Source: Nitrospirota bacterium (lineage in GTDB: Bacteria > Nitrospirota > UBA9217). Taken from it: 64,000 nucleotides of DNA. Where the stretch lies: contig JBARBN010000106.1 of NCBI GenBank assembly GCA_049793155.1, forward strand, positions 16,390 through 80,389, given 5' to 3'. Each line of letters begins with the position of its first letter. Within the stretch, counting starts at the first letter, position 1. Positions 22,319-61,951 of this stretch are shown one piece after another. The notes below the pieces were generated by a model. That model did no database searches and was not told the DNA's origin. It saw only the letters and a list, made by a program, of their open reading frames with translations. A program made the translations under genes and the position numbers.

Positions 22319-22765
22319 ATGAACGTTGCGGAAATGATCAAGCAGGTCCTGGAGCAAAAGGGTTACCGGAACCTGCGGGAAGCCTCGAAGGCGCTCGGCA
22401 TAAGCCAGGAGCTTCTGAGGCTCACGGTCAATAAACGGCACATCCCGAAGGATGACCTCCTCGGCACGATAGCGGACAAGCTCGGCATGGACCGGTCTGC
22501 ATTGCTCCTCGCAGCGCACCGGGAGAAGGTCCCCGTCGAGGTGCAGGGGTTCTTCCTCTCTCCGACGGAAGATAAAAAATACCAGCAGAAGCGGGTTTGG
22601 CCCCTTTCCGAGGAGCAGTGCAGCTATCTCGAGAAGGTCCTGAACGAAACGGAGATCCAGCACATCAGAAAATTCCGGCAGCTCCCGGACGAGGCACAGG
22701 AGCAGATCACGGGCTACCTCGACTATACCTGGGCAATGAAACGGTTATTGATGAAGAAAAGTTGA
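22319..22765 (+). CDS. XRE-family HTH transcriptional regulator
   Basis: The HTH is LREASKALGISQELLRLTVNKRHIP. The protein is 148 aa. Confidence 0.65.
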   Translation: MNVAEMIKQVLEQKGYRNLREASKALGISQELLRLTVNKRHIPKDDLLGTIADKLGMDRSALLLAAHREKVPVEVQGFFLSPTEDKKYQQKRVWPLSEEQCSYLEKVLNETEIQHIRKFRQLPDEAQEQITGYLDYTWAMKRLLMKKS

Positions 22766-22769
22766 AGTT

Positions 22770-22895
22770 AAGGCGGACGTAAAGGCTGATGCAAAGGCGA
22801 GGTAAAGCGAGGCAAGGCGACAAGAAGCGACTGGGAGATGAGAGGACGATGCACTTTTCTATTTTGGTCACAAAGTCGCTTTTTGTCGATTCTCG
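22770..22895 (+). repeat. Intergenic composite repeat, R3 block (gacgtaaagg..gcaaggcgac..agaagcgactgggagat..cgctttttgtcgattctcgtc)
   Basis: Long shared blocks with the reverse complement of 58545-58717, including an exact 21-mer 'cgctttttgtcgattctcgtc'. It shares 'gtcgattctcgtcgg' with the rc of 53500-53620. Confidence 0.5.
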
Positions 22896-23062
22896 TCTCT
22901 CTTATCATGTCGCACATAGTCCCTTGCTTCTTATCCCCTGTCATTATATAATACGGGTGATTAAATGAGTGAAGTCCCCCTGACCTTTCTGAACAGGTGC
23001 GTTGCTGGCTGACAGGTCAACACCCCTGAGGGGATGCATACCAGGGATCAATACGAGAGAAC

Positions 23063-24841
23063 ATGGCTTTTACCGGAGATCTGGAATATCTGAACATAGT
23101 GGACATCATTCAGCTGGTCCACGCCACGAAGCAGTCGGGCATTTTTTCCGTTAAGATACCCAACGCCGAGAGCAGGATCGTCTTCAGGGCCGGAAACATC
23201 GTTGGTGCAAATCATATCGACAACAGCGTTCGCATCGGGACCGTCCTGGTAAAGATGGGCGCTATAACGATCGACGATCTCAAAGAGGCAATAAGCGCCA
23301 GGAAGAACGCGGATAAAGACCGCATGCCGCTTCTCGCTACCCTGGTACAGATGGGCAAGCTGAAGCGGGAAGACGCCCTGCGAGGATTGAAAAAGCTGGT
23401 CGAGCTTGCGATCGTTGAACTGATGAGCTGGACGAAGGGCACGTTTACCTTCGACACTGAAGCGGCCGTCATTTCCTTCGAGGGGGGGCAGGATCTAGCC
23501 GTTGATGCCCAGATGGTCCTGATGGATGCGCTTCGCATCTCCGACGAGCGGGAACGCGACCGCCGTGAGGGAAAAGAAGTGCCTTCCATTGTGGCGCTCT
23601 ATCCCGATGTCCTTCCCGGTGAAGGCGACGCTGAAACGGAAGCTGAACGTTCGATGGTTACCGCGGATGATCTCGGGCTTGCCGACCTCGACCGTCTTGA
23701 AAAGAAGATACCCCGGCCTGCTTCTGAAATGGAGCTCTACGATCCGCTCGAGATCCACCGCCGGACCATACAGGAACTTCTCCCGGGTTTTTCTTCCGAA
23801 GAACAGGTTGCCTTTTTTTCTTTTCTGAAGAAATCCCTGGACCGAAAGGCCGGGCCCGACGATAAGGGGAAACAGGCGGGCAAGGCCGTCGTCATGTTCA
23901 GCAAGGACGCGCTGATAAACCATTCGGTCATGTCTCTTTGCAACAATGAGGGAGCGCTCGTATTTACGACAGACGACGATAAGGATCTCGGCCGGATGGT
24001 ATCGCAGTGCCTCCTTTCCGCGAGAATGCCCGTGGTTGTCTTCGACAGTCCCGCGGGACCGGAAGGCGTTTTTTCCCGGGAGAGGATCGCAGAACTGAGG
24101 AATCAGGTGAGGGCAAAGTACCCCTCGGTCCCTGTGCTTCAATTCGCCTCGCCTCAGGACAGCGAGTTCATCCTTCGCTCGTACCATGACGGCGTGAGGG
24201 CCGTCCTCCCCAAACCGTCGAAAGAGGGCCAGAGACAAACGTATATCCAGGATACGATAAAGTTCCTTGACGCGTTCAAGTCGTATGTTAAGAGCATTCA
24301 GAACGAAAGTGATGATGCCGATATCTACGTGAGGAAACTGAAAGACGGCATCGCGTCGCTTCGCGGGCTCACCAACCCTGCCGATGCGCCGCTCGTTGTC
24401 CTCACCGCAGTTTCCGGGATGTTCGAACGCGCGGTCACGCTTGTCGTCCGTGCCGCGGAATTGATCGGTGAAAGGGCCATAGGGATAGGTTCCGAGAAAC
24501 GCGAGGTGCCGACTCCTGCGGGCAATCTTAAGATCCAGCTTTCAAAACCTTCTGTTTTCCGCGACGTTGTCGAAAAGGGGCGGGTCTATTACGGAGAGAG
24601 CGGCGATGAAACGCTCAGGACATTTTTTGCGGAAATAGGCGCGCCGTTGAGGCCTGCCATCGTTCTGCTGCCCCTGATATCCGATCGAAAGGTCCTTGCG
24701 GTGATATATGGGGATTTCGGCCTGAAAGAGGCGTCTCCCGTGCGGCTCGACATGCTCGAGATCCTTGCTCAGCAAGCGGGCATTGTTCTGGAATATGAGA
24801 TCTTCCGAAGACAGATGACGAAAGCGGCGCAAAAAACATAG
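23063..24841 (+). CDS. PATAN/DUF4388-domain protein with a central receiver-like region and a C-terminal GAF-like domain
   Basis: The N-terminus GDLEYLNIVDIIQLVHATKQSGIFSVK matches the DUF4388 (PatA N-terminal) consensus. It is followed immediately by a PilT-like ATPase gene. Confidence 0.6.
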   Translation: MAFTGDLEYLNIVDIIQLVHATKQSGIFSVKIPNAESRIVFRAGNIVGANHIDNSVRIGTVLVKMGAITIDDLKEAISARKNADKDRMPLLATLVQMGKLKREDALRGLKKLVELAIVELMSWTKGTFTFDTEAAVISFEGGQDLAVDAQMVLMDALRISDERERDRREGKEVPSIVALYPDVLPGEGDAETEAERSMVTADDLGLADLDRLEKKIPRPASEMELYDPLEIHRRTIQELLPGFSSEEQVAFFSFLKKSLDRKAGPDDKGKQAGKAVVMFSKDALINHSVMSLCNNEGALVFTTDDDKDLGRMVSQCLLSARMPVVVFDSPAGPEGVFSRERIAELRNQVRAKYPSVPVLQFASPQDSEFILRSYHDGVRAVLPKPSKEGQRQTYIQDTIKFLDAFKSYVKSIQNESDDADIYVRKLKDGIASLRGLTNPADAPLVVLTAVSGMFERAVTLVVRAAELIGERAIGIGSEKREVPTPAGNLKIQLSKPSVFRDVVEKGRVYYGESGDETLRTFFAEIGAPLRPAIVLLPLISDRKVLAVIYGDFGLKEASPVRLDMLEILAQQAGIVLEYEIFRRQMTKAAQKT

Positions 24842-33672: not shown

Positions 33673-33951
33673 TTAATACTTCATTCCTTTATTTTCGGGC
33701 GCTTCCTTCTTCTCATCGCCCTTCATCATCTTATCGTCCGTCATCATCTTGTCGTCTTTCATCATCGTATCATCTTTTTTCATCGTATCATCGCTTTTCA
33801 TCGTCTCGTCTTTCATCATCCCCTTGTCGTCTTTCATCATCGAATCATCCTTCTTCATGGACTTGTCGTCCATGTCCGCGGCAAAGACGGGACCCGCAAG
33901 CAGGAATACGGCGATGGTCGCGAGCAGAAATGTTCCTATTTTCCTAGTCAT
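33673..33951 (-). CDS. Secreted Met/Asp/Lys-rich repeat protein ((M)MKDD pentapeptide repeats)
   Basis: The RBS 'aaggaggtgaaaacc' precedes the ATG at 33951. The signal peptide is MTRKIGTFLLATIAVFLLAGPVFA. The mature part is tandem repeats MKKDDSMMKDDKGMMKDETMKSDDTMKKDDTMMKDDKMMTDDKMMKGD, encoded by tandem DNA repeats. Confidence 0.65.
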   Translation of the reverse strand: MTRKIGTFLLATIAVFLLAGPVFAADMDDKSMKKDDSMMKDDKGMMKDETMKSDDTMKKDDTMMKDDKMMTDDKMMKGDEKKEAPENKGMKY

Positions 33952-34243
33952 GGTTTTCACCTCCTTTCGGGCCTTCAAGAGAATGGATCCAGAAGCCTTC
34001 GGAAGCGGATATCTTTCCCGCTTGCCTCGGTCTCTTTGTGCCACTGTATTGATAGTATACCGCGGTAAGATCACGCGGTGATCACGGCAATATTAATTTA
34101 CTAAACGGGGTGCACTGCTGCGCGGGGTGATACTATAGAATGATAATTGGCAGGTGTCAATTAAACACATCGACATGCGAAGGAGGCGTATCATGCAGAT
34201 GATTCAGCATGCCGCCGGAGTGCTTTACCATGAAAAGTCTGGC

Positions 34244-40934: not shown

Positions 40935-40965
40935 ACGGAGTTCACAGAGTTTTATGAATAACGAA
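40935..40965. repeat. Degenerate copy of the 9-bp tandem repeat (gagttcaca gagttttat gaataacga)
   Basis: Read from sequence. It belongs to the same GAGTYNATA family as 53669-53738. Confidence 0.3.
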
Positions 40966-40986: not shown

Positions 40987-41035
40987 CTGCCTGCACCCGG
41001 CGATTACGAGTGCTTAGCGCGAGTGCAGAGTGCGG
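40987..41035 (+). repeat. About 50-bp element 'ctgcctgcacccggcgattacgagtgc..gcgcgagtgc..gtgcgg', copy 1
   Basis: It matches 42111-42159 at about 75% identity in the same orientation (ctgcctgcacccggc ... gcgcgagtgc). Confidence 0.45.
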
Positions 41036-41274
41036 TTAAGTTCTGCCCCAGAGATGTTCGAGATAGGCAACGTATAGAATGCTACTTCGCCTTGCGTGAT
41101 GGGTGACGAGTTTTATAGGGACGCTCACGGGACTCGATCGCCCAATCATTCAAAGTTCAGAGGCTGCACCAAGCGTTTATGCGCGGATGTGTAAATGCGG
41201 GTGTTCAGATTTCAACGCATCAACGGATCAACGCATCCCACGGCCCCTATTCCATCAGGGTCAAAGGGCATCCC

Positions 41275-41910
41275 TTACATAAATTTCAGCAGCCCGCGCC
41301 CATCTCCCGTAAACAAAACAAGTCCCGCATGAATCATACTGATGGCCGATAACACGATGACCACGATCCCCTGCCCCAAAACGTTCAAGACCATATGCAC
41401 CAGCATCTCCACCGTCGTCATTGCCAGAACAACGAAACCGCACATCACAATCACGACACTAATGATCATTATTTTTGGGCTCCGCGTCTGCAGAAGCTCA
41501 TGGAGGTTGTGCGGCATGCCGGTATGGCCAAATACATAGAGGCCGCCAAGTCCAAGAATCAGTATGACTACCGCTACGATCGGTATGCTTCCCAACTGCC
41601 GGGCGCTCAGAGAAAGGCCGAGGATCAGCATGAGAAGAACGGTATACGAGGTCCTCACCGTAAGACCTCCAGACGTAACGATTGCATATATTGAAGCACC
41701 TATCAGCAAAACCCCTACGATCGCCGAAAGGTTTTGCAATGTGCTGCTTTCATGCTCCCTGGTCTTGATCGTCCGGTTGATACCCATGACCACACCGAGG
41801 CAGCCGGCGGCCAGGATCAGCCACAAATGAAGTGACGCCATTTTTTGACCCATTTTGTCCGACCCCCACAGGGTCAGCACAGTTAACCACGGATACACAC
41901 TGATGTACAC
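41275..41910 (-). CDS. Integral membrane protein, hypothetical (about 6 TM); start uncertain (alternatives at 41853/41841)
   Basis: Long hydrophobic ORF without a convincing RBS at any of its candidate starts. It is flanked by repeat copies. Confidence 0.45.
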   Translation of the reverse strand: MYISVYPWLTVLTLWGSDKMGQKMASLHLWLILAAGCLGVVMGINRTIKTREHESSTLQNLSAIVGVLLIGASIYAIVTSGGLTVRTSYTVLLMLILGLSLSARQLGSIPIVAVVILILGLGGLYVFGHTGMPHNLHELLQTRSPKIMIISVVIVMCGFVVLAMTTVEMLVHMVLNVLGQGIVVIVLSAISMIHAGLVLFTGDGRGLLKFM

Positions 41911-41987: not shown

Positions 41988-42028
41988 AAGAATATTCCTA
42001 ATGAGTGGAAAAGTAAAGGAGGTTTTTG
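41988..42028 (+). repeat. R1 block 'aagaatattcctaatgagtggaaaagtaaaggaggtttttg'
   Basis: Near-identical to 53622-53662 (aagaatatccttattgcggggaaaagtaaagtaggtttttg). Confidence 0.45.
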
Positions 42029-42110: not shown

Positions 42111-42159
42111 CTGCCTGCACCCGGCATTTACAAGCGCAACGCGCGAGTGCGGGCGTCGG
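42111..42159 (+). repeat. About 50-bp element, copy 2 (ctgcctgcacccggcatttacaagcgcaacgcgcgagtgcgggcgtcgg)
   Basis: Direct repeat of 40987-41035. The two copies bracket the membrane-protein gene 41275-41910. Confidence 0.45.
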
Positions 42160-51278: not shown

Positions 51279-51821
51279 TCACGATCGTTGTTCGCTGCCC
51301 GTAATCCATCCTGCATTCGCCGCGTCCTGTGCCGCGTCAGCTTCGAAATGCTCCGCTCGCGCACGTTCATCGGAAGAAAACACCTTGTCGATGTCCAGGA
51401 TGATGACGAACCTTTCGTTATGCCTGCCCATGCCCTTGATGAACTCCGTGTTCAGCCGCTTGCCGATCTTGGGCGCCGGCTCGACATGCTCGGACCCCAG
51501 GTCCATCACCTCCTGCACCGAATCAACAAGCGCGCCCAGAACAACGGTCTCCCCGTCAACCGTCACCTCGACGATGATGAGGCAGCTGTTCACAGTCTTC
51601 TCGGTCTTCGCCAAGCCGAACTTGAGCCGCAGGTCCACCACCGGCACCACGCTGCCGCGGACGTTGATCACACCGCACATGAATGCCGGCGTGCGCGGGA
51701 CCTTCGTGACCGCCGTGAAATCGAGCACCTCAAGCACCTTGCCGATCTCGAGCGCGAAAACCTCTTCGCCAAGTTTGAAGCTCAGATATTGAGTCGTTTC
51801 CATGATACCCGCTTCGGCCAT
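51279..51821 (-). CDS. cheW: Chemotaxis coupling protein CheW
   Basis: The RBS 'gggagg' precedes the ATG at 51821. The CheW fold is [17 protein letters not shown] ... [14 protein letters not shown]. Confidence 0.8.
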
Positions 51822-52228
51822 AGGAACCTCCCGTTTGAAATTCGGAGTGTACATTGCCAGAGATGCTGTGAAAGCGATACTCGCAACTGTAATACCGTTA
51901 TTTTTGTCTTATCCTTTTATATTTGTGATATAGAAAGCAAAATCCATACCATCCTGTCCGCATATTTTTTATTGCGACACCTGTCATTCGAGCAACGACT
52001 TCCGTGAAATTGCCCGAAGGCAGCCTGCAGCTGCACAACACGGTTATGCTCAAAAATATGCTTTAATATCGCGGTCATTGCTTGAGCAGATGGACGCTGT
52101 CCGTGGCTTTCCGTGAAGACATGCTGTCGGTCTGACCACTATTCATGATCTGCAATATAAACACATTCTAAAAAATGCGCCAATTTAGCCTCTGATTCTC
52201 CCCTTTTTATCTGATTATTCTCAATATA

Positions 52229-52242
52229 TGAGACATGTCTCA
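52229..52242. promoter_or_regulatory. Perfect 14-bp palindrome tgagacatgtctca plus a third half-site (atgagaca at 52258-52265) in the long AT-rich region upstream of cheW-mcp
   Basis: Read directly from the sequence. It is operator-like. Confidence 0.35.
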
Positions 52243-52642
52243 AGACAAAATCTCACCATGAGACAGCGTGTGCGACAATATAATTCAAACGATTAAGAGC
52301 TTATGAGCTATCTGATTGATTCGGAAGGGATCATTTCGTTCACATCGAGAAGGGATGTAGCAGTCGATTTGAGCAAGGCCGTGGTGGGAGAAAAGCACTT
52401 TTACCACATTTCAAGGGATGGTTGCAAACCAGGAAATTGCCCTCGCGCTTCGCAAGATGCCGTGCGCGACCCCTTCACCGCGATTGGAATCTTTCCGTGA
52501 AACATACCTGAGTGCCGATGCGCTCTGGTATGCCGAGGTGCCTTCATATGATTATTAGGCTTTTAATCTTAACATTGAGCGCATTCGAGATTTTTATGAA
52601 CTGCCTGCTGCCTGTCGCGGAGAAACAGATCGATAACCCGAT

Positions 52643-53026
52643 CTACTCCCCCTTCTTCTCCTCTTCTTTTATGATCAGAATAAGGGTGTCCGTCATCGTC
52701 GCGCCCGTTTGCGCGTCCTTCCACGGATTCTGAACCACCACATCCACGTCAATATCCATCTTCTTGAACCGCGCACGCTCTTTCGACGGGCTGCCGACCT
52801 TCAGGAACAGAAGCCCCTGCTTATTATAAAAGGCTATGACCTTTTCGATACTATCGTTGGTCCGGTATGCCGCCCCCTGGATCGACGGGTTCCGCGCGAG
52901 CAGATTCGTTCTGATCTGATCGTATTTCGCTCCGGGGTACACAACGACCCCAAACCGCTCTTCGGCAGCAGCGGTCGATATGCACATCATAAATACAAAC
53001 GCAGCAACACTAATCCTCGTTATCAT
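52643..53026 (-). CDS. Secreted hypothetical protein
   Basis: The RBS 'gaaggaga' precedes the ATG at 53026. The signal peptide is MITRISVAAFVFMMCISTAAA. Confidence 0.55.
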   Translation of the reverse strand: MITRISVAAFVFMMCISTAAAEERFGVVVYPGAKYDQIRTNLLARNPSIQGAAYRTNDSIEKVIAFYNKQGLLFLKVGSPSKERARFKKMDIDVDVVVQNPWKDAQTGATMTDTLILIIKEEEKKGE

Positions 53027-53103
53027 CTTTGTGTCTCCTTCCCGGGCCCCCCTTGGGTCAGCCGTCTGTTCGCCTTTCATCACCTGGTCGATCCTCTTCG
53101 CTT

Positions 53104-53484
53104 TTACCCCTTATATTCCCTCAGCGTCTTCGTCTTCTTTGCCTTTGCCTTCCCCTTCTTTTCCGGCAGCGACAGCGCGTACTCCTTCCCTATCCCCAGC
53201 CACTTTGCGAGACCTGCGGCGCCCTTCCAACCTGCTTCCCGCACCATGACCCAGCCGCTCATCGGCTTGCCGGTGATATCGAAGGGCTGCACGTTCTTGT
53301 CCTTGAGGCTCTTCTCTCCCTGCTCCTTGTCCGTGCGCACGATCAGGCTGTCCTTGTGGATGCCGAAGGCCATGTTGCCCCTGAGCAGGTAGCCCACGCC
53401 GCCGAACATCTTCTTCTTTTCCAGGTCCTTCCAGCGCTTCGCGGCAATATCGATCATTGCCTCCAATTTTTCGTTATAGGGCAT
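53104..53484 (-). CDS. TfoX N-terminal domain family protein
   Basis: The stretch KKKMFGGVGYLLRGNMAFGIHKDSLIVR matches the TfoX_N consensus. Confidence 0.55.
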   Translation of the reverse strand: MPYNEKLEAMIDIAAKRWKDLEKKKMFGGVGYLLRGNMAFGIHKDSLIVRTDKEQGEKSLKDKNVQPFDITGKPMSGWVMVREAGWKGAAGLAKWLGIGKEYALSLPEKKGKAKAKKTKTLREYKG

Positions 53485-53499
53485 ATCTGGCTCCGGTGA

Positions 53500-53620
53500 T
53501 GCCGACGAGAAACGACTAAGTACCGACAAGGATCGACGCAGAATTGACCAGGCGACATGTTAATGCAAAAAAAACCGACGAGAATCGACCGTCAGTCTTC
53601 ACCTGGAGCCGCTTTTTTGA
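53500..53620 (-). repeat. Partial R3-type repeat (gtcgattctcgtcgg, cggtacttagtcg motifs)
   Basis: The reverse complement shares 'gtcgattctcgtcgg' and 'gtacttagtcg' with 22770-22895 and 58545-58717. Confidence 0.4.
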
Positions 53621-53621
53621 G

Positions 53622-53668
53622 AAGAATATCCTTATTGCGGGGAAAAGTAAAGTAGGTTTTTGAGAGAC
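53622..53668 (+). repeat. R1 block 'aagaatatccttattgcggggaaaagtaaagtaggtttttgagag'
   Basis: Matches 41988-42028. Confidence 0.45.
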
Positions 53669-53738
53669 TAATGAGTTCATAGAGTTCATAGAGTTTATAG
53701 AGTTCATTGAGTTTGTAGCGTCTAAAGAGTTTAAATCA
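53669..53738. repeat. Tandem 9-bp repeat array (gagttcata x about 7; consensus GAGTYNATA)
   Basis: actaatgagttcatagagttcatagagtttatagagttcattgagtttgtagcgtctaaagagtttaaatc. Strict 9-bp periodicity is visible in the sequence. Confidence 0.55.
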
Positions 53739-53833
53739 TCACGCGCTCAAGATAATCTTGCCCCCGAGACCGACTATTTGTATAATAAGAACAAGTGCGT
53801 ATCCTTCATGAGAAAAGACCTGAACTATTGTCC

Positions 53834-56800
53834 ATGACCTTGCGAAAGAAAATACTAATCTGGCTTGCGGTCAGCATGACCGTGTTCCTTGCCGCCGTGA
53901 TCTTCATGGCGCCGGTCTATCTTAATTCCAAGTCAGCGAAAGGCGGCATCGAGGCCGCGGTATCGAAACGGCTCGGTGGAACCATGTCGTATGAGAGGCT
54001 CGATCTTTCACTCTTTCCCCGCCCCCATATCTCGATCACGAAGCTGAAGCTTCGCTATCCCCGGACGTTCCGCGGGACCCTTCAAGCGCTCGACATTTAT
54101 CCTCAACTCTTGCCGCTGTTCTCCGGCAAAATGCGCCTTGCGAAGATCCGGATCGCGGAGCCCGACTTCAGGGTCATTCTGCCCGCATCGGTCTCTGAAT
54201 CAACTGCAGAGGCTCCCTCTCTTGTAGAGGCCAAGAAAGATATTCGCGCCGCGCTCTACTATCTGGAGGCTATCGGCCCGGGCCTTGTCATGGAGATGGA
54301 CAACGGCAAATTCCTTTTCAGGAGGAGTCACCGGGATTTTCTCTCTCTGAAGGACGTGACCGTGCACTTCAACGCGCCGCCCGGCGATATGAAGTTCCTG
54401 GTCAAGGCATCCACGGAGCAATGGGGGAATTTTTCCTTGAGTGGATCCTATTCCTTCACCGAGGAGAGGTCTGAGGTCAGGGACCTGGCAATATCCATGG
54501 GGCTCTCTTCTCTCACCGGATTTTCCGCGAACCTGTATTGGGACCGCATACCCTGGCTGGACATGTTCTCAGGCAGCGCCGTGGTCAATCTCGATGAGCT
54601 CTACTCCTGGCTGTCGTCCTCGGAAAGCCTGACTCCGTTTCTGCAGCACGTGCGCCTGAAACGCGGGGTGCTGACCATCTCCTCCCTGTTCGGCGGCGGG
54701 CTGATCGATCATCCCGAGACATGGAAGGGAAAGATGACCGGCGAGGTGAAGGATGTGCTCGCGGAATCTCACTGGCTACCGGCGCCGCTGGGCCTCAGCA
54801 CCCGGTTCATAATCGATGAAAGCACCCTGGAAGTCACCGGGTTGTCGGCCCGGCTTGGATCATCTTCCCTTGACAATGTCTCGGCGCAGTTTGTTAAAAG
54901 TAAGGTGCCCGACTTCGCGGTTTCAGAAGGACGGGCATCGATCGACCTGGCAGAGCTGTTTGGCTGGAGGAGCAGGTACGAAAAGGCAGGGACGATGTTA
55001 AAAGACATTAATGATCTCGCTGGTAAAATATCCCTCTCTTCTCTGAGCATGGGAGGTCCACTGCTGCAGCCCGAGAAATGGCGTCTGAACATCACGGGCG
55101 AGGCGAGGGGGATCGCGATAGGCTCTCCTCTCCTCCCCGCGTCGCTTGGCGTAAGCGGACGGTTCTCCCTGGAGGAGAACAAGGTGGCGATCTCGGACAC
55201 GACGGTCCGCCTCGGCACGTCATCCCTGTCCCGCGTCTCCGCGAGCATCACCGGCCGCGATACACCCGTGCTCGAGATCGCGAACGCCAACGCGCTCATC
55301 CATGTTGCAGAGGTTTTCCAGTGGCGCAGCCGGTACCCGGCGTTGGACAGCTCGCTGAGCAGCGTGCATGACCTGAAGGGAGATCTGACCGTGACCTCGC
55401 TTGGTTTCAGGGGACCGCTGCTTCATCCCGAGCGCGGAGAGATCACTGCTGCCGGCGGTCTTGACCATATCATCATCGACTCATCGATCCTGCCGGCGCC
55501 GTTCGGTCTGGCAAGAGGCGATTTCAGGTTCGTTCCGGACAGCTTGTCCTTCGGCCTGCGCGAAGCCACGATCCTGGATTCGTCCCTGACCGGTACGGCC
55601 GTTATCAGCCGCATTACAAACACCCTGGAACGCACCATCGATATGACCATTGACGGGAGCTCCGGCAGAAAAACGCTTGACTGGGTCTTTGCGAACCTCG
55701 AACTGCCGCCCGGGCTCATGATCAAGACCCCCATTGCGGTCAGGAATTCCCATCTGACCTGGGAAGGGACAAAAGGACTCACCTTCTCCGGATCGATATC
55801 CGTTCCGGAAGGACTGGCCTTCCTCGTCGATCTTACCCAACGCAATACCGATCTCGACATCCGGCGTCTGGTGATCAAGGACCGGGAGACGAACGCGGCC
55901 ATCACGTTGAACTGGCAGAAACAGAAGGCAGACATTTCCTATTCAGGTGTCATGGCCCAGTCCACGCTGAGCAGAATATTCGAACAGGGAAATTTCGGCA
56001 AAGGCTCCGTACAGGGCGATATTCATGCAGTGATCCACACGGACCTTCCGCTCAGGTCCCGCATCAAAGGCGATCTTGAAGGCAGCGATATTTTCATTCC
56101 CTGGGGGATGCCGGTGCCCATCACGATCGACAAGTTCGCGATCAACGCAGATGGTGATGTCCTGACCGTGGACAAAGCTGATGTCACCTGGGGCGGACAT
56201 CATTACTCCATGACGGGCGCGGCAACGACCTCGGACGAGGGGATCGCCTTCAGCATGGCGCTCAAGGCCGACGGCATTGAGATACAGGAAATTCAGCAGG
56301 CCATGGAGCAGGCAGGCAGGAAAAGCACCGATCAAAAGGTCAGGTCTTTTCCCCTGCCGCCCATACGGGGCGACCTCCGAGCCGACTCGTCGTATGTTAA
56401 ATTCAGAAGCTTTATCTTTGCCCCCGCCCACGCCGTCGTAACCGTGGATCCGGACAGGGTGAACATGGAATTTACCGACACCAGGACCTGCGATATTTCG
56501 ATACCGGGTTCGCTCCTTATTTCACGGGAAAGCATCTCTTTTACGTTCACCCCCACGGCAAAGAAAGAAACCCTGGGTTATACGGTCTCCTGCCTGACGA
56601 ACATGGATGCGCATATCTCCGGCGAGTATGACCTAAGTTCGAGTTTCAGGTCGCACGGTATGGGAAAAGAGCTGCTCTCTGCCCTGGAAGGCAGGGTGGA
56701 TTTCAAGGCGCGGGACGGCAAGATTTACCATTATCCGCTCCTGCAAAAAATATTTTCCGTTTTGAGCGTGCTTGATATCTTTCGCGGCAGGGCCCCGGAC

Positions 56801-57190
56801 TTTGGGGGAAGCGGCTTCCCTTATCATTCCATGGCAATACGGGGAGATATTCACCAAGGCGTTTTCACCCTGGAGAAAGCCTATATCGGCGGGCAGTCTT
56901 TGGACATCATTGCCGAAGGCAAGATCGATCTGGGAAAGCAGCGTTTGGACCTCATCGTGCTCGTTGCGCCCTTTTCATCGATCAACTGGATCATCCGGCA
57001 CATTCCGCTCGTAGGAAAGGTCATGGGCGGCACCCTCATCTCGATCCCGGTCCGGGTGTCCGGCGATCTGACGAATCCGAGTGTTGTATTCCTCTCACCC
57101 ACGGCCGTGGGCTCCCGGATCTTGAAGCTTTTGGAGAACATCATAAAACTGCCGGTGGATATCGTTTCGCCGCTGATGCCGAAGCAATAA
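53834..57190 (+). CDS. AsmA-family large envelope protein (N-terminal TM anchor, long repetitive beta-rich body, AsmA-like C-terminus)
   Basis: About 1119 aa. The N-terminus is MTLRKKILIWLAVSMTVFLAAVIF. The body has repetitive segments (RLGSSSLDNVSAQF / RLGTSSLSRVSASI). The start was chosen at the ATG (53834) over the upstream GTG. Confidence 0.55.
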   Translation: MTLRKKILIWLAVSMTVFLAAVIFMAPVYLNSKSAKGGIEAAVSKRLGGTMSYERLDLSLFPRPHISITKLKLRYPRTFRGTLQALDIYPQLLPLFSGKMRLAKIRIAEPDFRVILPASVSESTAEAPSLVEAKKDIRAALYYLEAIGPGLVMEMDNGKFLFRRSHRDFLSLKDVTVHFNAPPGDMKFLVKASTEQWGNFSLSGSYSFTEERSEVRDLAISMGLSSLTGFSANLYWDRIPWLDMFSGSAVVNLDELYSWLSSSESLTPFLQHVRLKRGVLTISSLFGGGLIDHPETWKGKMTGEVKDVLAESHWLPAPLGLSTRFIIDESTLEVTGLSARLGSSSLDNVSAQFVKSKVPDFAVSEGRASIDLAELFGWRSRYEKAGTMLKDINDLAGKISLSSLSMGGPLLQPEKWRLNITGEARGIAIGSPLLPASLGVSGRFSLEENKVAISDTTVRLGTSSLSRVSASITGRDTPVLEIANANALIHVAEVFQWRSRYPALDSSLSSVHDLKGDLTVTSLGFRGPLLHPERGEITAAGGLDHIIIDSSILPAPFGLARGDFRFVPDSLSFGLREATILDSSLTGTAVISRITNTLERTIDMTIDGSSGRKTLDWVFANLELPPGLMIKTPIAVRNSHLTWEGTKGLTFSGSISVPEGLAFLVDLTQRNTDLDIRRLVIKDRETNAAITLNWQKQKADISYSGVMAQSTLSRIFEQGNFGKGSVQGDIHAVIHTDLPLRSRIKGDLEGSDIFIPWGMPVPITIDKFAINADGDVLTVDKADVTWGGHHYSMTGAATTSDEGIAFSMALKADGIEIQEIQQAMEQAGRKSTDQKVRSFPLPPIRGDLRADSSYVKFRSFIFAPAHAVVTVDPDRVNMEFTDTRTCDISIPGSLLISRESISFTFTPTAKKETLGYTVSCLTNMDAHISGEYDLSSSFRSHGMGKELLSALEGRVDFKARDGKIYHYPLLQKIFSVLSVLDIFRGRAPDFGGSGFPYHSMAIRGDIHQGVFTLEKAYIGGQSLDIIAEGKIDLGKQRLDLIVLVAPFSSINWIIRHIPLVGKVMGGTLISIPVRVSGDLTNPSVVFLSPTAVGSRILKLLENIIKLPVDIVSPLMPKQ

Positions 57191-57255: not shown

Positions 57256-58344
57256 CTACTCGATGGTCGAGTTGATGATCTCGGTAAAGGTGTCGCTGTG
57301 CATCGAGATCCCGGGCAGTGCATACCACGACCCGCCGACATTGCGGCTTATCACGGAATCTTCCACGTGAAGCGTGCCGGTATGGTCGTTCGAAATGAAG
57401 AAGATCGCGGAGCCGTAGCTGTTCACTTCGTTGTCCCTGATGTCCGACCCGTACAATGCAAGCGTCATGGTATTGCCGTCGTTGTAGATCGCGCCTCCGC
57501 TCCCGCCGCCGGGGGTCCCGGACTGGACGGGATTGCCGCCATTACCGATCGCCCGGTTGTGTGAGAACAGGCTGTTATAGATCGCCCAGGAGACCCCGAT
57601 GCTGCTGATGCCGCCGCCGTTCGCGCCGACGTTGCCGTAGCCCGGCGCACCGCCAAAGGTGCTGTTCACCACATAAACAGGAAGGCCGTTGTATTGGCTG
57701 AAGACCCGGACTGCGGCGCCCCCGACATCGGGCCCCGAGTCGGCGCAGACATTATTGAAGAACCGGCTGTTTACGACCTTGAACCGGCCTCCCCTGACCC
57801 AGACGGCCCCGCCGCCATCGTACACGGTCTCATTCCTGGAGTTGCCGTCGATGAACGTCAGGTTCTGGATGGTCAGTCGCGGATGGTCCTGGTCCTGGCA
57901 ATGCGACGTGGTCCACACCTGGTCCTGATCGCACGTGTTCATGTACAGAATGCGGGTAACGCCCCCGCCGCTCAGCGTGACCAGCCCGCCACCATCGATC
58001 ACGACATCCGGCCGGTCATTGAACACCTTGGCCGGGCGATCGAGGGTGATTGTGAGCGGACCGGGTCCGCAATCGAAGGTGATCTTGCCGCCTTGGGCAA
58101 CGGCCTGGATAAACTCCTCTGCCGTGCAGCTCTCGCGCGTTCCGCTGCCGATGACATGATCCGGGGAAGAAACGTCCTCAGCCCCGGCCCCGGCAGGGAC
58201 GAGATAGTGGCCGGACGGATTTCCGGCTAACGGTCCCTGCAGCGGGTCCGTATGGGGGTCAGCTACCGGCGTATTGCCTGTTTCTCCTGTGCCGCTGCTG
58301 CAAGCACAGCATAGTACGATCCCGAGGACAGCGATCGCCTTCAT
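57256..58344 (-). CDS. Secreted/lipoprotein-like protein with right-handed parallel beta-helix (pectate-lyase-like) repeats
   Basis: The signal sequence is MKAIAVLGIVLCCACSSG. The repeats are Gly/Asn-rich (NNV, GGGA, GNGG, ISNDHTG). Confidence 0.65.
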   Translation of the reverse strand: MKAIAVLGIVLCCACSSGTGETGNTPVADPHTDPLQGPLAGNPSGHYLVPAGAGAEDVSSPDHVIGSGTRESCTAEEFIQAVAQGGKITFDCGPGPLTITLDRPAKVFNDRPDVVIDGGGLVTLSGGGVTRILYMNTCDQDQVWTTSHCQDQDHPRLTIQNLTFIDGNSRNETVYDGGGAVWVRGGRFKVVNSRFFNNVCADSGPDVGGAAVRVFSQYNGLPVYVVNSTFGGAPGYGNVGANGGGISSIGVSWAIYNSLFSHNRAIGNGGNPVQSGTPGGGSGGAIYNDGNTMTLALYGSDIRDNEVNSYGSAIFFISNDHTGTLHVEDSVISRNVGGSWYALPGISMHSDTFTEIINSTIE

Positions 58345-58386
58345 CAGCTGAAGTCTCTCAGGGTTCGGTCTTTTTTCGTGCATCAC

Positions 58387-58533
58387 CTACTTCCACCCCG
58401 TCAACCATTCCAGGATGAACCAGGCCGCGACCAGCACGACAACGAGAAACACCCACCTCGCGACGTTCATCCATGCGCTGCCGTGTTCCGGCTCCTCCGG
58501 CGTTCCAGGTTCTTTATTCACTTTATTCTCCAT
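58387..58533 (-). CDS. Possible small membrane protein (48 aa), translationally coupled to the beta-helix protein gene
   Basis: MENKVNKEPGTPEEPEHGSAWMNVARWVFLVVVLVAAWFILEWLTGWK. Its stop is adjacent to GTGATG of the downstream gene. There is no clear RBS. Confidence 0.3.
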   Translation of the reverse strand: MENKVNKEPGTPEEPEHGSAWMNVARWVFLVVVLVAAWFILEWLTGWK

Positions 58534-58544
58534 TCAAGGGGCGT

Positions 58545-58717
58545 AACAACCGATGTAAAGCGACTGAGTACCTACTAGAACCGAAACTGATGAAGACCGA
58601 CGAGAATCGACAAAAAGCGATCTCCGAGTCGCTTCTCCGCCGCTTCTCGTCGCCTTTACGTCTGCCTTTTTGCCTCTTCGTCGCCTTGCATCGCTTTACA
58701 TCGCTTTACGTCTGTCT
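58545..58717 (-). repeat. R3 composite repeat, inverted orientation relative to 22770-22895
   Basis: The rc contains gacgtaaagcga, gcaaggcgac, agaagcgactcggagat, cgctttttgtcgattctcgtc. Confidence 0.5.
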
Positions 58718-60541
58718 TTAGCCGCTCTCCTTGATGACGCGGTAGACGGTCTCGCTGAAGTCTTTAATGCTGTAGGGCTTGGTCAAGACGCCTTTGAAGC
58801 CGAACTTCCTGAATTGCTCCATGACCGTATCATTGGAATAACCGCTCGACACGATCGCCCGGACATTAGGGTCTAATTCGAGCAGTTTCGCAACCGCTTC
58901 CTTTCCTCCCATGCCTCCCGGTATGGTCAAATCCATGATGACCGCGTGAAAGGGCTTCCCCGACGCCATTGCCTCTTGGTAAGCCTCTATCGCACTCTTC
59001 CCCTCTTGAGCAAGCACGACATCATAGCCCAGGGCTATAAGGATTTTTTTCGACGCGTCCCGGACTGCCTCGTCATCGTCCATGACCAGTATCCGTCCGT
59101 CTCCCTTCTGAAGTTCCTGTTTCTTGACCTCTTGTTTCACGACCTTGCCTTCCGACGCGGGAAGGTAGATGATGAAGGTCGTACCCTTGCCCAATACGGA
59201 GGACGCGGTGATCTGGCCCTTATGTTTTTTTATAATGGAATAGGACGTCGCAAGACCGAGGCCGTTTCCATTCTTTTTCGTCGTAAAATACGGATCAAAT
59301 ATTTTTGACAGATGTTCTTTCGCTATGCCTGCTCCGCAGTCTTCAATCGATATTTTCACATACTTTCCTTTATCCAGGGAAGGGATATTCGACGCGCCGA
59401 GCTCGACATTCTCGCCGATGACCGTGATCGAACCGCCGGCCTGCATGGCCTGGTCCGCGTTGATGACCATATTATTGATAACCTGTCTCAACTGTCCCCC
59501 ATCGGCGTCGACAAGCCAGAGGTCCTGCGGAATGGAAAATTCACACTTCACCTTGGTCCCCCGCAGGGAGAAATGCACTGAGTCCTTGATGAGCTCCCCG
59601 ATGGCCTGCGTGCTCTTGACCGGCCCCCCTCCTTTGGAGAAGGTCAGGAGCTGCTGGGTCAGATCCTTTGCCCTGAGAGTCGCCTGCGCAGCCTCCTCCA
59701 GCCGTTCAAAGACCTTATTCTCCTGGACGGAATACATCTTCGCCAGTTCAACGTTGCTCAGGATCCCCGACAGGAGATTGTTAAAGTCATGGGCGATCCC
59801 GCCAGCAAGAAGGCCGACCGATTCAAGCTTCTGCGCGCTGAGAAGCTCTTCTTCCATTGCCTTGCGCTCGGTAATGTCTATGATCATTGCCTGTTTGGAA
59901 ATGGTGCCGTCCGTGTTGCGAATGGGCGTATTGGTCACATGGTACCACCGGTTGTCCTTGGGGCTCTGCACTTCCCATTCAACGGTTTCACCCCTCAGCA
60001 CCTTGTCATTCACACACCAGGTACAAACAGAATCCTTTTCGTGCAAAGCTTCATAACAGTTCCGCCCGGTGGCGTCGTAACCGGTGCGTTCTTTCAACCG
60101 GTCGTTCATGAACTCAATGCGATAGTCCGGAGAACAAATGTAGATGAATCCGTCAAAGGCCTCGATCATGGCGCGGTACCTCGCTTCGCTCCGCGCGAGC
60201 GCCTGCTCGGTCTGAATCCGTTCCGCGATCTCCTGCTGAAGCCGCAGGTTGATGCTTTTCAGCTGTGCCGTGTACCTCATAAAATATATAACGATCGGAG
60301 CGACGATCAAGGGCACGAACAGCGCGTCAATGGCGCCTATGATCAGCAGCTCTGTCGACAGCTTTCCGTACCAGATAAAGCTTTGTACGGAATTCAGCAG
60401 TGCCGTAAATAGTTCCGAAATTACGACGGCAATCCAGATGAAATGCCAGGGATTTATCGGCTTCTTGTTCTCATTCATGTTTGTGATCATACGTGGTGCG
60501 CTCCGCACTGCATCAGGAAACCTCCCCTTTCTGCCCGACAA
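58718..60541 (-). CDS. Hybrid sensor histidine kinase (TM, PAS, HisKA, HATPase_c, C-terminal REC)
   Basis: HisKA is AHDFNNLLSGI. HATPase is GNGLGLATSY. The REC is ILVMDDDEAV...VIMDLTIPGGMGG. A TTG start follows a 'gaagga' RBS-like sequence. An ATG alternative lies at 60490. Confidence 0.8.
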   Translation of the reverse strand: MSGRKGRFPDAVRSAPRMITNMNENKKPINPWHFIWIAVVISELFTALLNSVQSFIWYGKLSTELLIIGAIDALFVPLIVAPIVIYFMRYTAQLKSINLRLQQEIAERIQTEQALARSEARYRAMIEAFDGFIYICSPDYRIEFMNDRLKERTGYDATGRNCYEALHEKDSVCTWCVNDKVLRGETVEWEVQSPKDNRWYHVTNTPIRNTDGTISKQAMIIDITERKAMEEELLSAQKLESVGLLAGGIAHDFNNLLSGILSNVELAKMYSVQENKVFERLEEAAQATLRAKDLTQQLLTFSKGGGPVKSTQAIGELIKDSVHFSLRGTKVKCEFSIPQDLWLVDADGGQLRQVINNMVINADQAMQAGGSITVIGENVELGASNIPSLDKGKYVKISIEDCGAGIAKEHLSKIFDPYFTTKKNGNGLGLATSYSIIKKHKGQITASSVLGKGTTFIIYLPASEGKVVKQEVKKQELQKGDGRILVMDDDEAVRDASKKILIALGYDVVLAQEGKSAIEAYQEAMASGKPFHAVIMDLTIPGGMGGKEAVAKLLELDPNVRAIVSSGYSNDTVMEQFRKFGFKGVLTKPYSIKDFSETVYRVIKESG

Positions 60542-61034
60542 AATGGTCCTTCTTGTCCTTGAACAGGATGTTGAACGTGGTCAGGGAACCATATATGCGG
60601 GTAATGTACTGCTGCAGCTCTACCTTCTCGGTGTCGGTCAACTTCTTATGGCCGTTGATCTGCGCCTCCATGACCCGCAGGCGGTCGCGGACCATCACGA
60701 TCTTGTGGAAGAAGGCCTCGATCGGAACGGACTTTGGCGTCTGGCCCGTGTCAGCCGGCTTCAGCACCAGCTCCCCGCCCTGCCACCGCGCGCCGAGCTC
60801 GATCGCGGGCAAGTCCTCCTCGTTCAACTCGCGGGCGGCGAGCATCACCATCTCGTACGCCGCCGCCTCGGCATCGGACAGCGGCTGCAGATCATCAACA
60901 TCGACCAGGGTCTGCTTGTACAAACGCGGGAAATAGACCTCGCAATCAGGTCCGCCGCCCTTTGCCGTGCTTTCCACGCGGCCGATGCCGAAATGATCGT
61001 GCCGCACAAAGTCTCCCTTTAACAGGTCAGCCAT
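60513..61034 (-). CDS. Hypothetical protein (173 aa) whose 3' end overlaps the hybrid kinase start by about 29 nt
   Basis: The RBS 'ccgggagg' precedes the ATG at 61034 (MADLLKGDFVRHDHFGIGRV...). The longer track ORF (to 61469) overlaps the nitroreductase gene and was truncated. Confidence 0.55.
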   Translation of the reverse strand: MADLLKGDFVRHDHFGIGRVESTAKGGGPDCEVYFPRLYKQTLVDVDDLQPLSDAEAAAYEMVMLAARELNEEDLPAIELGARWQGGELVLKPADTGQTPKSVPIEAFFHKIVMVRDRLRVMEAQINGHKKLTDTEKVELQQYITRIYGSLTTFNILFKDKKDHFVGQKGEVS

Positions 61035-61052
61035 GATGGTCCTCCCGGTGTT

Positions 61053-61118
61053 TGTAAAGTCTAAAGAGGATATAGAGTCTATTGAGTAAATAGAGTTAAT
61101 GGAATTTGTAGAAATTAA
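61053..61118. repeat. Tandem 9-bp repeat array (aagtctaaa gaggatata gagtctatt gagtaaata gagttaatg gaatttgta gaaattaaa)
   Basis: 9-bp periodicity. It belongs to the GAGTYNATA family. It lies immediately upstream of the 60513-61034 gene. Confidence 0.5.
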
Positions 61119-61780: not shown

Positions 61781-61871
61781 AGGGTTCAGTGACCCCCTTT
61801 TTTTGTTCAAAGCGTACTCCAAATGAACGAATTTGGCAAGAGGTATCAGTTCGGGTCAGGATGCGGTATGG

Positions 61872-61930
61872 AAAGTCTATTGAGTTCATAGAGTCTATTG
61901 TGTTCATAAAGTCTAAAGAGTGTATAGAGG
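61872..61930. repeat. Tandem 9-bp repeat array (aagtctatt gagttcata gagtctatt gtgttcata aagtctaaa gagtgtata)
   Basis: An 18-bp super-unit 'gagtctattgagttcata' repeats twice. The array is upstream of the nitroreductase gene. Confidence 0.55.
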
Positions 61931-61951
61931 TGAGGAGATGTCTGCTCAAGA

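Follow-up and report, generated by a model that had tools for sequence, protein, structure and literature searches.

The 64-kb stretch of DNA analysed here (the window; coordinates are window positions) is chromosomal DNA of an uncultured Nitrospirota bacterium, in which ~55 open reading frames (ORFs) annotated by Pfam represent signalling, transport and housekeeping genes. This study concerns the region 53485–53833 between two divergent genes, encoding a TfoX_N protein and an AsmA/YhdP-like protein, where three repeat blocks (R3', R1 and R2) abut one another at 53485–53738; further copies of all three lie elsewhere in the window (Table 1). A Logan contig from run SRR28023564 was 100% identical to positions 53001–55183, and the TfoX_N protein and a 192-aa membrane protein of the window have identical counterparts in an NCBI Nitrospirota metagenome-assembled genome. 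The original prediction had described a non-coding composite repeat family in which the blocks are concatenated between these genes. The concatenation was seen as described, and non-coding status was upheld: the sole ORF across the region (53516–53707, minus strand) would be broken by 1–2-nt indels in the sister species, and small ORFs running through the arrays were not conserved in the relatives compared. All blocks recurred far above chance, with 15 matches to the three-unit R2 pattern AGTNNANNGAGTNNANNGAGTNNA at up to two mismatches (0.19 expected), two matches to the 22-nt R1 core (0.00 expected) and an exact 22-mer shared between R3 copies. The notion of a single family did not survive, since R1, R2 and R3 share no sequence and co-occur only at 53.5 kb, so that the 'composite' reflects adjacency rather than homology. 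The supposed AT-richness held for R1 and R2 (26–34% GC, window 54%) but not for R3 (48–51%). With about even confidence, we read the region as an inherited divergent control region juxtaposing three unrelated lineage-specific repeats, namely R3 hairpins, an R2 minisatellite and an R1 promoter-like duplicate.

Table 1. Coordinates of the repeat blocks, associated sites and flanking genes in the 64-kb window
Feature	Position	Strand	Details
R3 copy 1, long imperfect hairpin	22766–22925	+	sense fold -54 to -64 kcal/mol, z = -2.5; antisense -39 kcal/mol
Two-unit R2-like relic (plausible), GAGTTCACAGAGTTTTAT	40938–40955	+	present in L664, absent from L665
R1 copy 2	41988–42028	-	~80–135 nt upstream of 192-aa membrane-protein gene (41275–41853, -)
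TfoX_N gene	53104–53484	-	left flank of composite
R3', read as 3' (pyrimidine-rich) arm of R3 hairpin	53485–53621	-	upstream/leader of TfoX_N gene; GTCG(N)TTCTCGTCGG units repeated
Terminator-like stem-loop then U8, inside R3'	53562–53600	-	consensus scan: 12 pairs, 7-nt loop, T-run
R1 copy 1, 41-bp module	53622–53662	-	CAAAAACCTaCTTTACT-N17-TATTCT, promoter-like, facing TfoX_N gene
R2 array 1, ~8 units of 9 bp, GAGTTCATA type	53663–53738	+	between R1 module and AsmA-like promoter-like site
Sigma-70-like promoter site of AsmA/YhdP-like gene, TTGCCC-17-TATAAT	53758–53786	+	10/12 in consensus scan; consensus match only
AsmA/YhdP-like gene	53834–57190	+	right flank of composite
R3 copy 2, long imperfect hairpin	58539–58717	-	sense fold -64.7 kcal/mol, z = -2.0; antisense -56.6 kcal/mol
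R2 array A, ~7 units	61050–61118	+	fills 80-nt spacer from nitroreductase stop to 173-aa gene start (both genes -)
R2 array B, ~7 units, 18-bp super-period	61866–61933	+	begins ~18 nt past 430-aa gene stop

The window was compared with close strains (L123–L126, 90–93% nucleotide identity), with a sister species (L660 and L661), whose identity to the window at 4-fold degenerate sites (~0.81) served as a neutral yardstick, and with a further relative (L662). The composite R3'-R1-R2 and R2 arrays A and B occupied the same positions in L660–L662; the composite, being present at the orthologous site in a sister species, was therefore inherited and not inserted.

Full-length R3 elements measured 150–185 nt, and only two full copies and one partial copy were present in the 64 kb. 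Copy 1 starts 4 nt past the TGA of a 148-aa gene (22319–22765, plus strand) and precedes a DUF4388-GAF gene (23063–24841), while copy 2 begins directly past the TAA of a hybrid histidine kinase gene (58718–60541, minus strand) and precedes a 48-aa ORF (58387–58533); both are in the sense orientation of their co-directional flanking genes. The 5' arm is purine-rich and consists of tandem 10–11-nt units such as GACGTAAAGGC, GATGTAAAGC and GGCGACGAAG (period 10–11 in Tandem Repeats Finder, TRF, at 22770–22840 and 58640–58712), and the 3' arm is its pyrimidine-rich complement, CGCTTTTTGTCGATTCTCGTC and so on, with a 14-bp stem of GACAAGAAGCGACU paired with AGUCGCUUUUUGUC in copy 1. The exact 22-mer is common, in inverted orientation, to 22876–22897 and 58599–58620, inside a 28-nt inverted match of 93% identity, and the 13-mer GACGAGAATCGAC occurs exactly at 22885, 53577 and 58599. 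Folding of R3, which the original prediction had proposed, returned a long hairpin in both full copies, at -64.3 and -64.7 kcal/mol, that had not been recognised there (z-scores in Table 1 are against dinucleotide shuffles).

Six R3 copies from the window and its relatives, corresponding to only ~4 independent loci, were folded on both strands. In 6/6 the sense RNA was more stable than the antisense RNA, by 6–26 kcal/mol, and contained more G.U pairs (5–12 versus 1–5 per copy), a pattern that a structure important in RNA would be expected to show. Position followed an equally strict rule: all ~10 full or partial instances (window 22766 and 58717, L123, three blocks in L124, L660 6033 and 6249, L141 and L149) were in sense orientation and lay 0–10 nt past a stop codon. 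The earlier statement that the elements always lie upstream of gene starts thus needs amending for the full R3 copies, which directly follow stop codons between co-directional genes. One shortened version, a mini-R3 at L660 6271–6300, looks like a canonical terminator, of the form GCGACGAAG-loop-CTTCGTCGC-TTTT. From these regularities we infer that R3 elements are transcribed tandem-repeat hairpins, with a putative part in termination or processing.

Repetitive extragenic palindromic sequences (REPs), bacterial interspersed mosaic elements (BIMEs) and REPINs of E. coli and Pseudomonas are dispersed extragenic palindromes that lie at gene 3' ends or between cistrons and act on mRNA stability or termination; REPs are 20–40 nt long and present in hundreds of copies in a genome, lack a tandem-unit structure and owe their mobility to REP-associated tyrosine transposases (RAYTs). 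As an extragenic hairpin at gene 3' ends R3 is a functional analogue, and to that extent the label 'REP-like' used in the original prediction stands; it fails on size (150–185 nt of tandem units) and on copy number in the 64 kb, and no RAYT gene was found in the window.

Could R3, or the whole composite, nevertheless be a non-autonomous element of the REP/REPIN type or a miniature inverted-repeat transposable element (MITE), inserting by gene ends with the help of a transposase or RAYT encoded elsewhere? R3 is a dispersed palindrome with an exact 22-mer at two loci 36 kb apart, and its copy at the kinase site of L124 was closer to the window copy at 22.8 kb (score 150 over 132 nt) than to the orthologous copy at 58.6 kb (92 over 74 nt), which indicates that R3 copies at different loci exchange sequence. 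In L124, moreover, a swapped-in bAvd-like gene is surrounded by three R3 blocks, and transposase genes lie near the R1 copy 2 locus in relatives (Y1_Tnp in L665, a DDE transposase in L663). Against mobility, no terminal inverted repeats flanked the composite, R1, R2 or R3, the last being a tandem-unit hairpin from end to end and not an element body with short terminal inverted repeats at its edges, and no target-site duplications or pairs of filled and empty sites were found at orthologous sites in L123–L126 and L660–L662. Differences at these sites were mainly unit-sized indels or the loss of one arm, without duplicated flank, rather than presence or absence; R3 arm lengths varied in this way among strains, the 5' arm of copy 2 differing by ~27 nt from L123. 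No transposase, RAYT/Y1 or integrase (Phage_integrase) was encoded among the Pfam-annotated proteins of the window, the R3 core pattern had zero exact matches in Joint Genome Institute (JGI) metagenome contigs, and the composite and arrays A and B sit at orthologous sister-species sites. We consider a mobile origin very unlikely, and the MITE proposal of the original prediction was abandoned.

Imperfect palindromes directly after the stop codons of co-directional genes also recall the attC recombination sites of sedentary-integron gene cassettes, the more so as strains differ in the genes that they carry from the 48-aa ORF to the AsmA gene end (a 376-aa gene, the bAvd-like gene or nothing). 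However, neither GTTRRRY nor RYYYAAC core sites were present in five R3 copies, whose attC identity was rejected on this ground; no integrase is encoded in the window, the flanking genes are ordinary housekeeping and signalling genes with promoter-like sites of their own, and the R3 arms are tandem repeats, unlike attC. The integron explanation is thus extremely unlikely.

At the focal locus, R3' contains matches of the GACGAGAATCGAC type at 53504, 53525 and 53577 but did not fold on its own (z = -0.04 on the TfoX sense strand). It was 88% identical to L660, and the sequence of its terminator-like stem-loop was kept, with changes, in L660, L661 and L662. Among the more distant TfoX loci compared (L141, where TfoX is 81% identical, and L149), L141 has a complete R3-like hairpin between the upstream stop codon and the TfoX start, in the same position as R3' and with a 3' arm resembling it in sequence, TTCTCGTC(T/G)GTTTT...TGCAT. 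We read 53485–53621 as a relic 3' arm of R3, probably still carrying a small stem-loop followed by U8; the original prediction had not recognised that this piece is the 3' arm only.

The 48-aa ORF downstream of R3 copy 2 is a conserved membrane micro-ORF (MENKVNKEPGTPEEPEHGSAW...WFILEWLTGWK), and in many related metagenome contigs it lies directly upstream of TfoX_N (L130, L132–L137, L146, L154–L156, L159–L162, L169–L172 and L177). In the window lineage a 3.3-kb AsmA gene in the opposite orientation stands between the two; this arrangement suggests a past insertion or inversion, and an R3 hairpin may have been split by it. In the window and L123, the interval from the 48-aa ORF to the AsmA gene end (window 57256–58386, minus strand) encodes a 376-aa Gly/Asn-rich protein with no Pfam match; in L124, R3 blocks flank a gene there for a 124-aa bAvd/23S-rRNA-IVP-like protein, and L660 and L661 have no gene, only a 57-nt spacer with a predicted terminator. 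On the other side of the locus, window 51371–53103 holds only short ORFs without Pfam matches, where the sister species has a 530-aa gene after TfoX_N (L660 10598–12190) that gave no tblastn match anywhere in the window.

R1 is present as two 41-nt copies of 85% identity, both reading CAAAAACCTnCTTTACT-N17-TATTCT on the minus strand. Two conserved blocks coincide with hexamers resembling -35 and -10 elements and with an A-tract, and the eight central bases, in the spacer, differ. Copy 1 sits 135 nt upstream of its minus-strand gene and was conserved in L660–L662. Copy 2, which was compared in the strains L664, L665 and L666 and in the sister species L663, was conserved in the three strains and absent from the orthologous site of L663, where a different purine-rich repeat sits; its absence from the sister species points to a probably recent duplication. 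With its UP-like A-tract and TTTACT-N17-TATTCT, R1 would be a promoter-like module present in duplicate, one copy for each of two minus-strand genes, and it is best regarded as a predicted promoter. For R1, then, the shared regulatory site of the original prediction was a fair guess.

Other features of the R1 copy 2 locus were recorded. A 40-bp direct repeat (40987–41026 and 42111–42150, 83% identical, CTGCCTGCACCCGGC...GCGCGAGTGC) brackets the membrane-protein gene together with R1 copy 2, and its upstream copy was conserved in L664 and L665. The segment 40600–41130 is absent from L665, which has the Y1_Tnp gene, not flanked by R3, in its place, and the DDE transposase of L663 lies there too. 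The locus looks like a local insertion hot spot.

All R2 pattern matches were on the plus strand and fell into three arrays (53665–53733, 61058–61108 and 61874–61933) with a TRF period of 9 and an 18-bp super-period; the 10-mer GTCTAAAGAG was common to all three (3 matches versus 0.05 expected). Their lengths behave differently. Array B differed from L124 by -27 nt in the window, -36 nt in L123 and -18 nt in L660, all multiples of 9, and array 1 was only 58% identical to L660, with a 9-bp indel, compared to 81% at 4-fold sites, and thus changes more quickly than neutral sites do; array A, which ends 19 nt before the ATG of the 173-aa gene, was constant in length in five genomes. With units arranged head to tail, whole-unit changes in copy number and dispersal over several loci, R2 has the features of short tandem repeat families and variable-number tandem repeats (VNTRs), and its length changes are VNTR behaviour as judged from aligned genomes, a character that the original prediction had missed. 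Outside the window, R2 arrays were found only at the three orthologous sites and at one sister-genome site (L013, intercistronic between two ABC ATPase genes), and none was found in 0.35 Mb of more distant relatives. A degenerate fourth window copy proposed at 40935–40965 was reduced to two units; apart from the arrays, only GAGTTCACAGAGTT at 40938 matches GAGTT-N4-GAGTT in the window (~0.09 expected by chance), and this weak evidence makes it a plausible R2 relic.

The idea that R2 arrays form half of a sense-RNA hairpin was tried and rejected, the folds in the minus-strand operon being no better than those of shuffled sequences (z = +0.6 and +1.6, array A being unusually unstructured at +1.6). 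No Pfam domain was found in the 173-aa protein encoded downstream of array A (60513–61034, minus strand), which has >8000 homologues at E <= 1e-5, with 70–97% identity among the best 120 of these; its N-terminus, GDFVRHDHFGIGRVE, may resemble the RNA-polymerase-interacting motif of CarD/TRCF.

Related units and a common 10-mer in three arrays that lie within 8.3 kb and beside gene starts, the retained length of array A in five genomes and the occurrence of R1 in two gene upstream regions might all be explained if R2, and possibly R1, were binding-site arrays of one regulator, uniting the TfoX_N/AsmA, nitroreductase and 173-aa/kinase genes in one regulon. However, units repeating every 9 bp do not keep in phase with the DNA helix, their sequence drifts fast and copy number is free to vary. 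Distances from array to start codon are inconsistent (19 nt for array A, ~90 nt from the end of array B to the nitroreductase start, ~100–185 nt at 53.67 kb), as is position relative to the predicted promoters, which include a promoter-like TTGCCA-17-TACGCT, conserved in relatives, upstream of the nitroreductase gene. Furthermore, no DNA-binding protein is encoded beside the arrays and conservation does not exceed the neutral level. Such a regulon is unlikely; no evidence of a sequence-specific role was found for R2.

A cross-phylum R2 family was likewise considered and rejected. A four-unit R2 pattern had at least 120 matches in 185,579 species genomes (Bacteroidota, Acidobacteriota, Planctomycetota, Omnitrophota, archaea and others), yet in a viral collection three permuted-letter controls gave at least 120 matches each versus 92 for R2. 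Permuted units matching at least as often, the breadth reflects a general abundance of 9-bp tandem arrays and not homology. Among the matches listed (L002–L121), ~22 GAGT arrays started within 30 nt past a same-strand stop codon versus ~4 in the opposite orientation, ~17 ACTC-sense arrays ended within 30 nt of a start codon versus ~4 opposite, and ~35–40% of the listed intergenic arrays paired with a downstream inverted array to form a hairpin. This orientation rule is only a lead, as ORF calls were naive, the units themselves contain stop and start codons, and several loci share metagenome-assembled genomes (MAGs).

Closer to the window, tandem-repeat hairpins with other units were common right behind stop codons in the clade, including (GTAAGAA)n and (AGTTCAG)n hairpins in L155, L161 and L165, and R3 is the one among them that has spread over several loci. 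In L123 (2671–2771), the spacer from the DUF503 stop to the rbfA start, inside the infB-rbfA-truB-rpsO-pnp cluster, is taken up entirely by (CAGAAGC)n, a loop, (CTCCTGA)n and TTTT; the stem has a 7-nt period and one C.A mismatch per unit. Just past the membrane-protein stop in the window (41170–41245, minus strand) lies an 8-bp array, (GATGCGTT/GATCCGTT)n, followed by its complement (CACGCATAAACGC...); its unit is unrelated to R3 and its copy number is ~3 in the window, ~6 in L664, ~8 in L665 and ~6 in L663. Tandem repetition is also found within a predicted coding sequence: at 33685–33870, ~8 copies of an 18-bp repeat encode a D/K/M-rich repeat (minus strand) in a 133-aa ORF (33673–34074, minus strand) that has no Pfam match, and the orthologous repeat occurs in L664 (18020–18177).

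Several observations weigh against our interpretation of the region. Identity to L660 was 0.88 for R3', 0.83 for R1 and 0.83 for the array A spacer, not distinguishable from the neutral 0.81; block conservation close to this level neither proves nor excludes function, and a test for purifying selection against the sister species has no power because neutral divergence is only ~19%. The fold z-scores of R3 are only modest (-2.0 and -2.5), RNAalifold on six R3 sequences yielded no usable covariation, the repeats permitting several pairing registers, and full R3 copies, with 50–60-bp interrupted stems, large loops and no clean U-tail behind the outer stem, were not called terminators by a simple consensus scan. 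L660 has just the purine arm, within a 64-nt spacer, at the kinase site, which implies that the 3' arm was gained or lost recently and that the hairpin is not indispensable there. The L124 copy would need exchange between loci, which slippage alone does not explain. As for the other blocks, R1 matches the sigma-70 consensus at 8/12 positions, below the scan threshold, and the orientation of R2 relative to transcription varies, being ACTC-sense at four window sites and GAGT-sense in L013.

In a purely neutral explanation, all blocks would be by-products of replication slippage and template-switch inverted duplication, without function at the DNA or RNA level. Every block is conserved at or below the 4-fold-site level (the values above being indistinguishable from it), the R3 3' arm was dispensable at one orthologous site, the clade's intergenic DNA carries many different tandem units, and public sequence contains abundant 9-bp arrays irrespective of the unit. 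A neutral origin does not fit well with the strict sense orientation and stop adjacency of R3-type arrays in all ~10 instances, the greater stability and more frequent G.U pairs of the sense strand in 6/6 copies, the canonical terminator-like form of short R3 versions, or the stable length of array A next to the unstable array B. We regard it as rather unlikely and retain the reading of three unrelated, inherited repeats in one control region.

No Rfam covariance model matched at the gathering score, nor did any match the repeats at E up to 5 or 20 loci with array hairpins, and nothing relevant was found in the literature on the unit strings and 9-bp repeats. Short tandemly repeated repetitive (STRR) sequences of heterocystous cyanobacteria have 7-bp units, can often form intergenic hairpins between co-transcribed genes such as hupS-hupL, and have a proposed role in transcript stabilisation or translational coupling (PMC2670836). 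As short tandem units dispersed in intergenic DNA, R2 and the R3 arms resemble them but differ in unit length (9 bp in R2, 10–11 bp in R3), in host (Nitrospirota) and in copy number, which is high for STRR and low here so far; the sequences are unrelated, and the function of STRR is itself unproven. In the 5' untranslated region (UTR) of H. influenzae hmw1A, an (ATCTTTC)n repeat pairs with a purine-rich arm into a long hairpin, which is transcribed and cut by RNase III, and the repeat number varies (PMC12721329). R3 has the same repeat-arm architecture, for which hmw1A offers a plausible mechanism, although the latter has one repeat arm in the 5' UTR of a phase-variable adhesin at a single locus, whereas R3 follows stop codons at several loci. 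Array B and the 53.67-kb array, changing by whole units upstream of promoters or leaders, are reminiscent of VNTR or contingency loci; the presence of one unit family at three to four loci is unusual for classic contingency loci, and no phenotype or on/off logic is known for R2. Lastly, R3' (53562–53600) and the L660 mini-R3 are like intrinsic terminators in being a stem-loop followed by a T-run, and like bidirectional terminators in that their A-rich 5' flanks pair with the U-tract; full R3 copies differ from intrinsic terminators by the interrupted stems, large loops and lack of a clean U-tail described above.

Sequences, hairpins, rules of orientation and position, copy-number changes and orthologous inheritance are direct observations, and a mechanism can be proposed to connect them. 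Purine-rich units (GACGTAAAGGC, GGCGACGAAG) would be amplified by replication slippage right behind a stop codon, and an inverted, pyrimidine-rich copy of the array would then allow a 50–60-bp imperfect RNA stem to form. Lying between co-directional genes, this stem may act at the RNA level as a terminator or attenuator, as a protector of 3' ends or as a processing site of the RNase III type. The R2 minisatellite would expand and contract by slipped-strand mispairing, and a possible effect on neighbouring promoter-like sites or leaders would at most be one of spacing or strength and not sequence-specific. A bolder extension, which we consider improbable, is that many gene 3' ends and intercistronic spacers of the clade, and perhaps more widely, carry self-renewing tandem-repeat hairpins: an array would arise by slippage after a stop codon, acquire its inverted second arm by fold-back and exchange sequence between loci without a transposase (as in L124), with R2 arrays being single arms. 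If true, these would be a distinct class of fast-evolving RNA 3'-end or processing elements, in which stem length is tuned by repeat number.

Repeats of the R2 and R3 types also appear to break short-read assemblies. The 28.5-kb contig of the closest strain, L123 (ENA ERZ25039551 contig_63760), ends 150 bp inside the AsmA gene, ~250 bp from the composite, and several other MAGs have arrays at contig ends (e.g. L019, L021, L022 and L027).

If our reading of three juxtaposed repeats is right, it would add little new biology, extending STRR-like hairpins and minisatellites to an uncultured Nitrospirota lineage. For annotators it would mean that such blocks are neither genes nor mobile elements, that they break short-read assemblies and that, being fixed in orientation, they serve as markers of gene 3' ends. 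Should repeat number set the strength of a terminator or RNase III site, strain-level variation in these repeats would be a cheap means of tuning expression in environmental bacteria.

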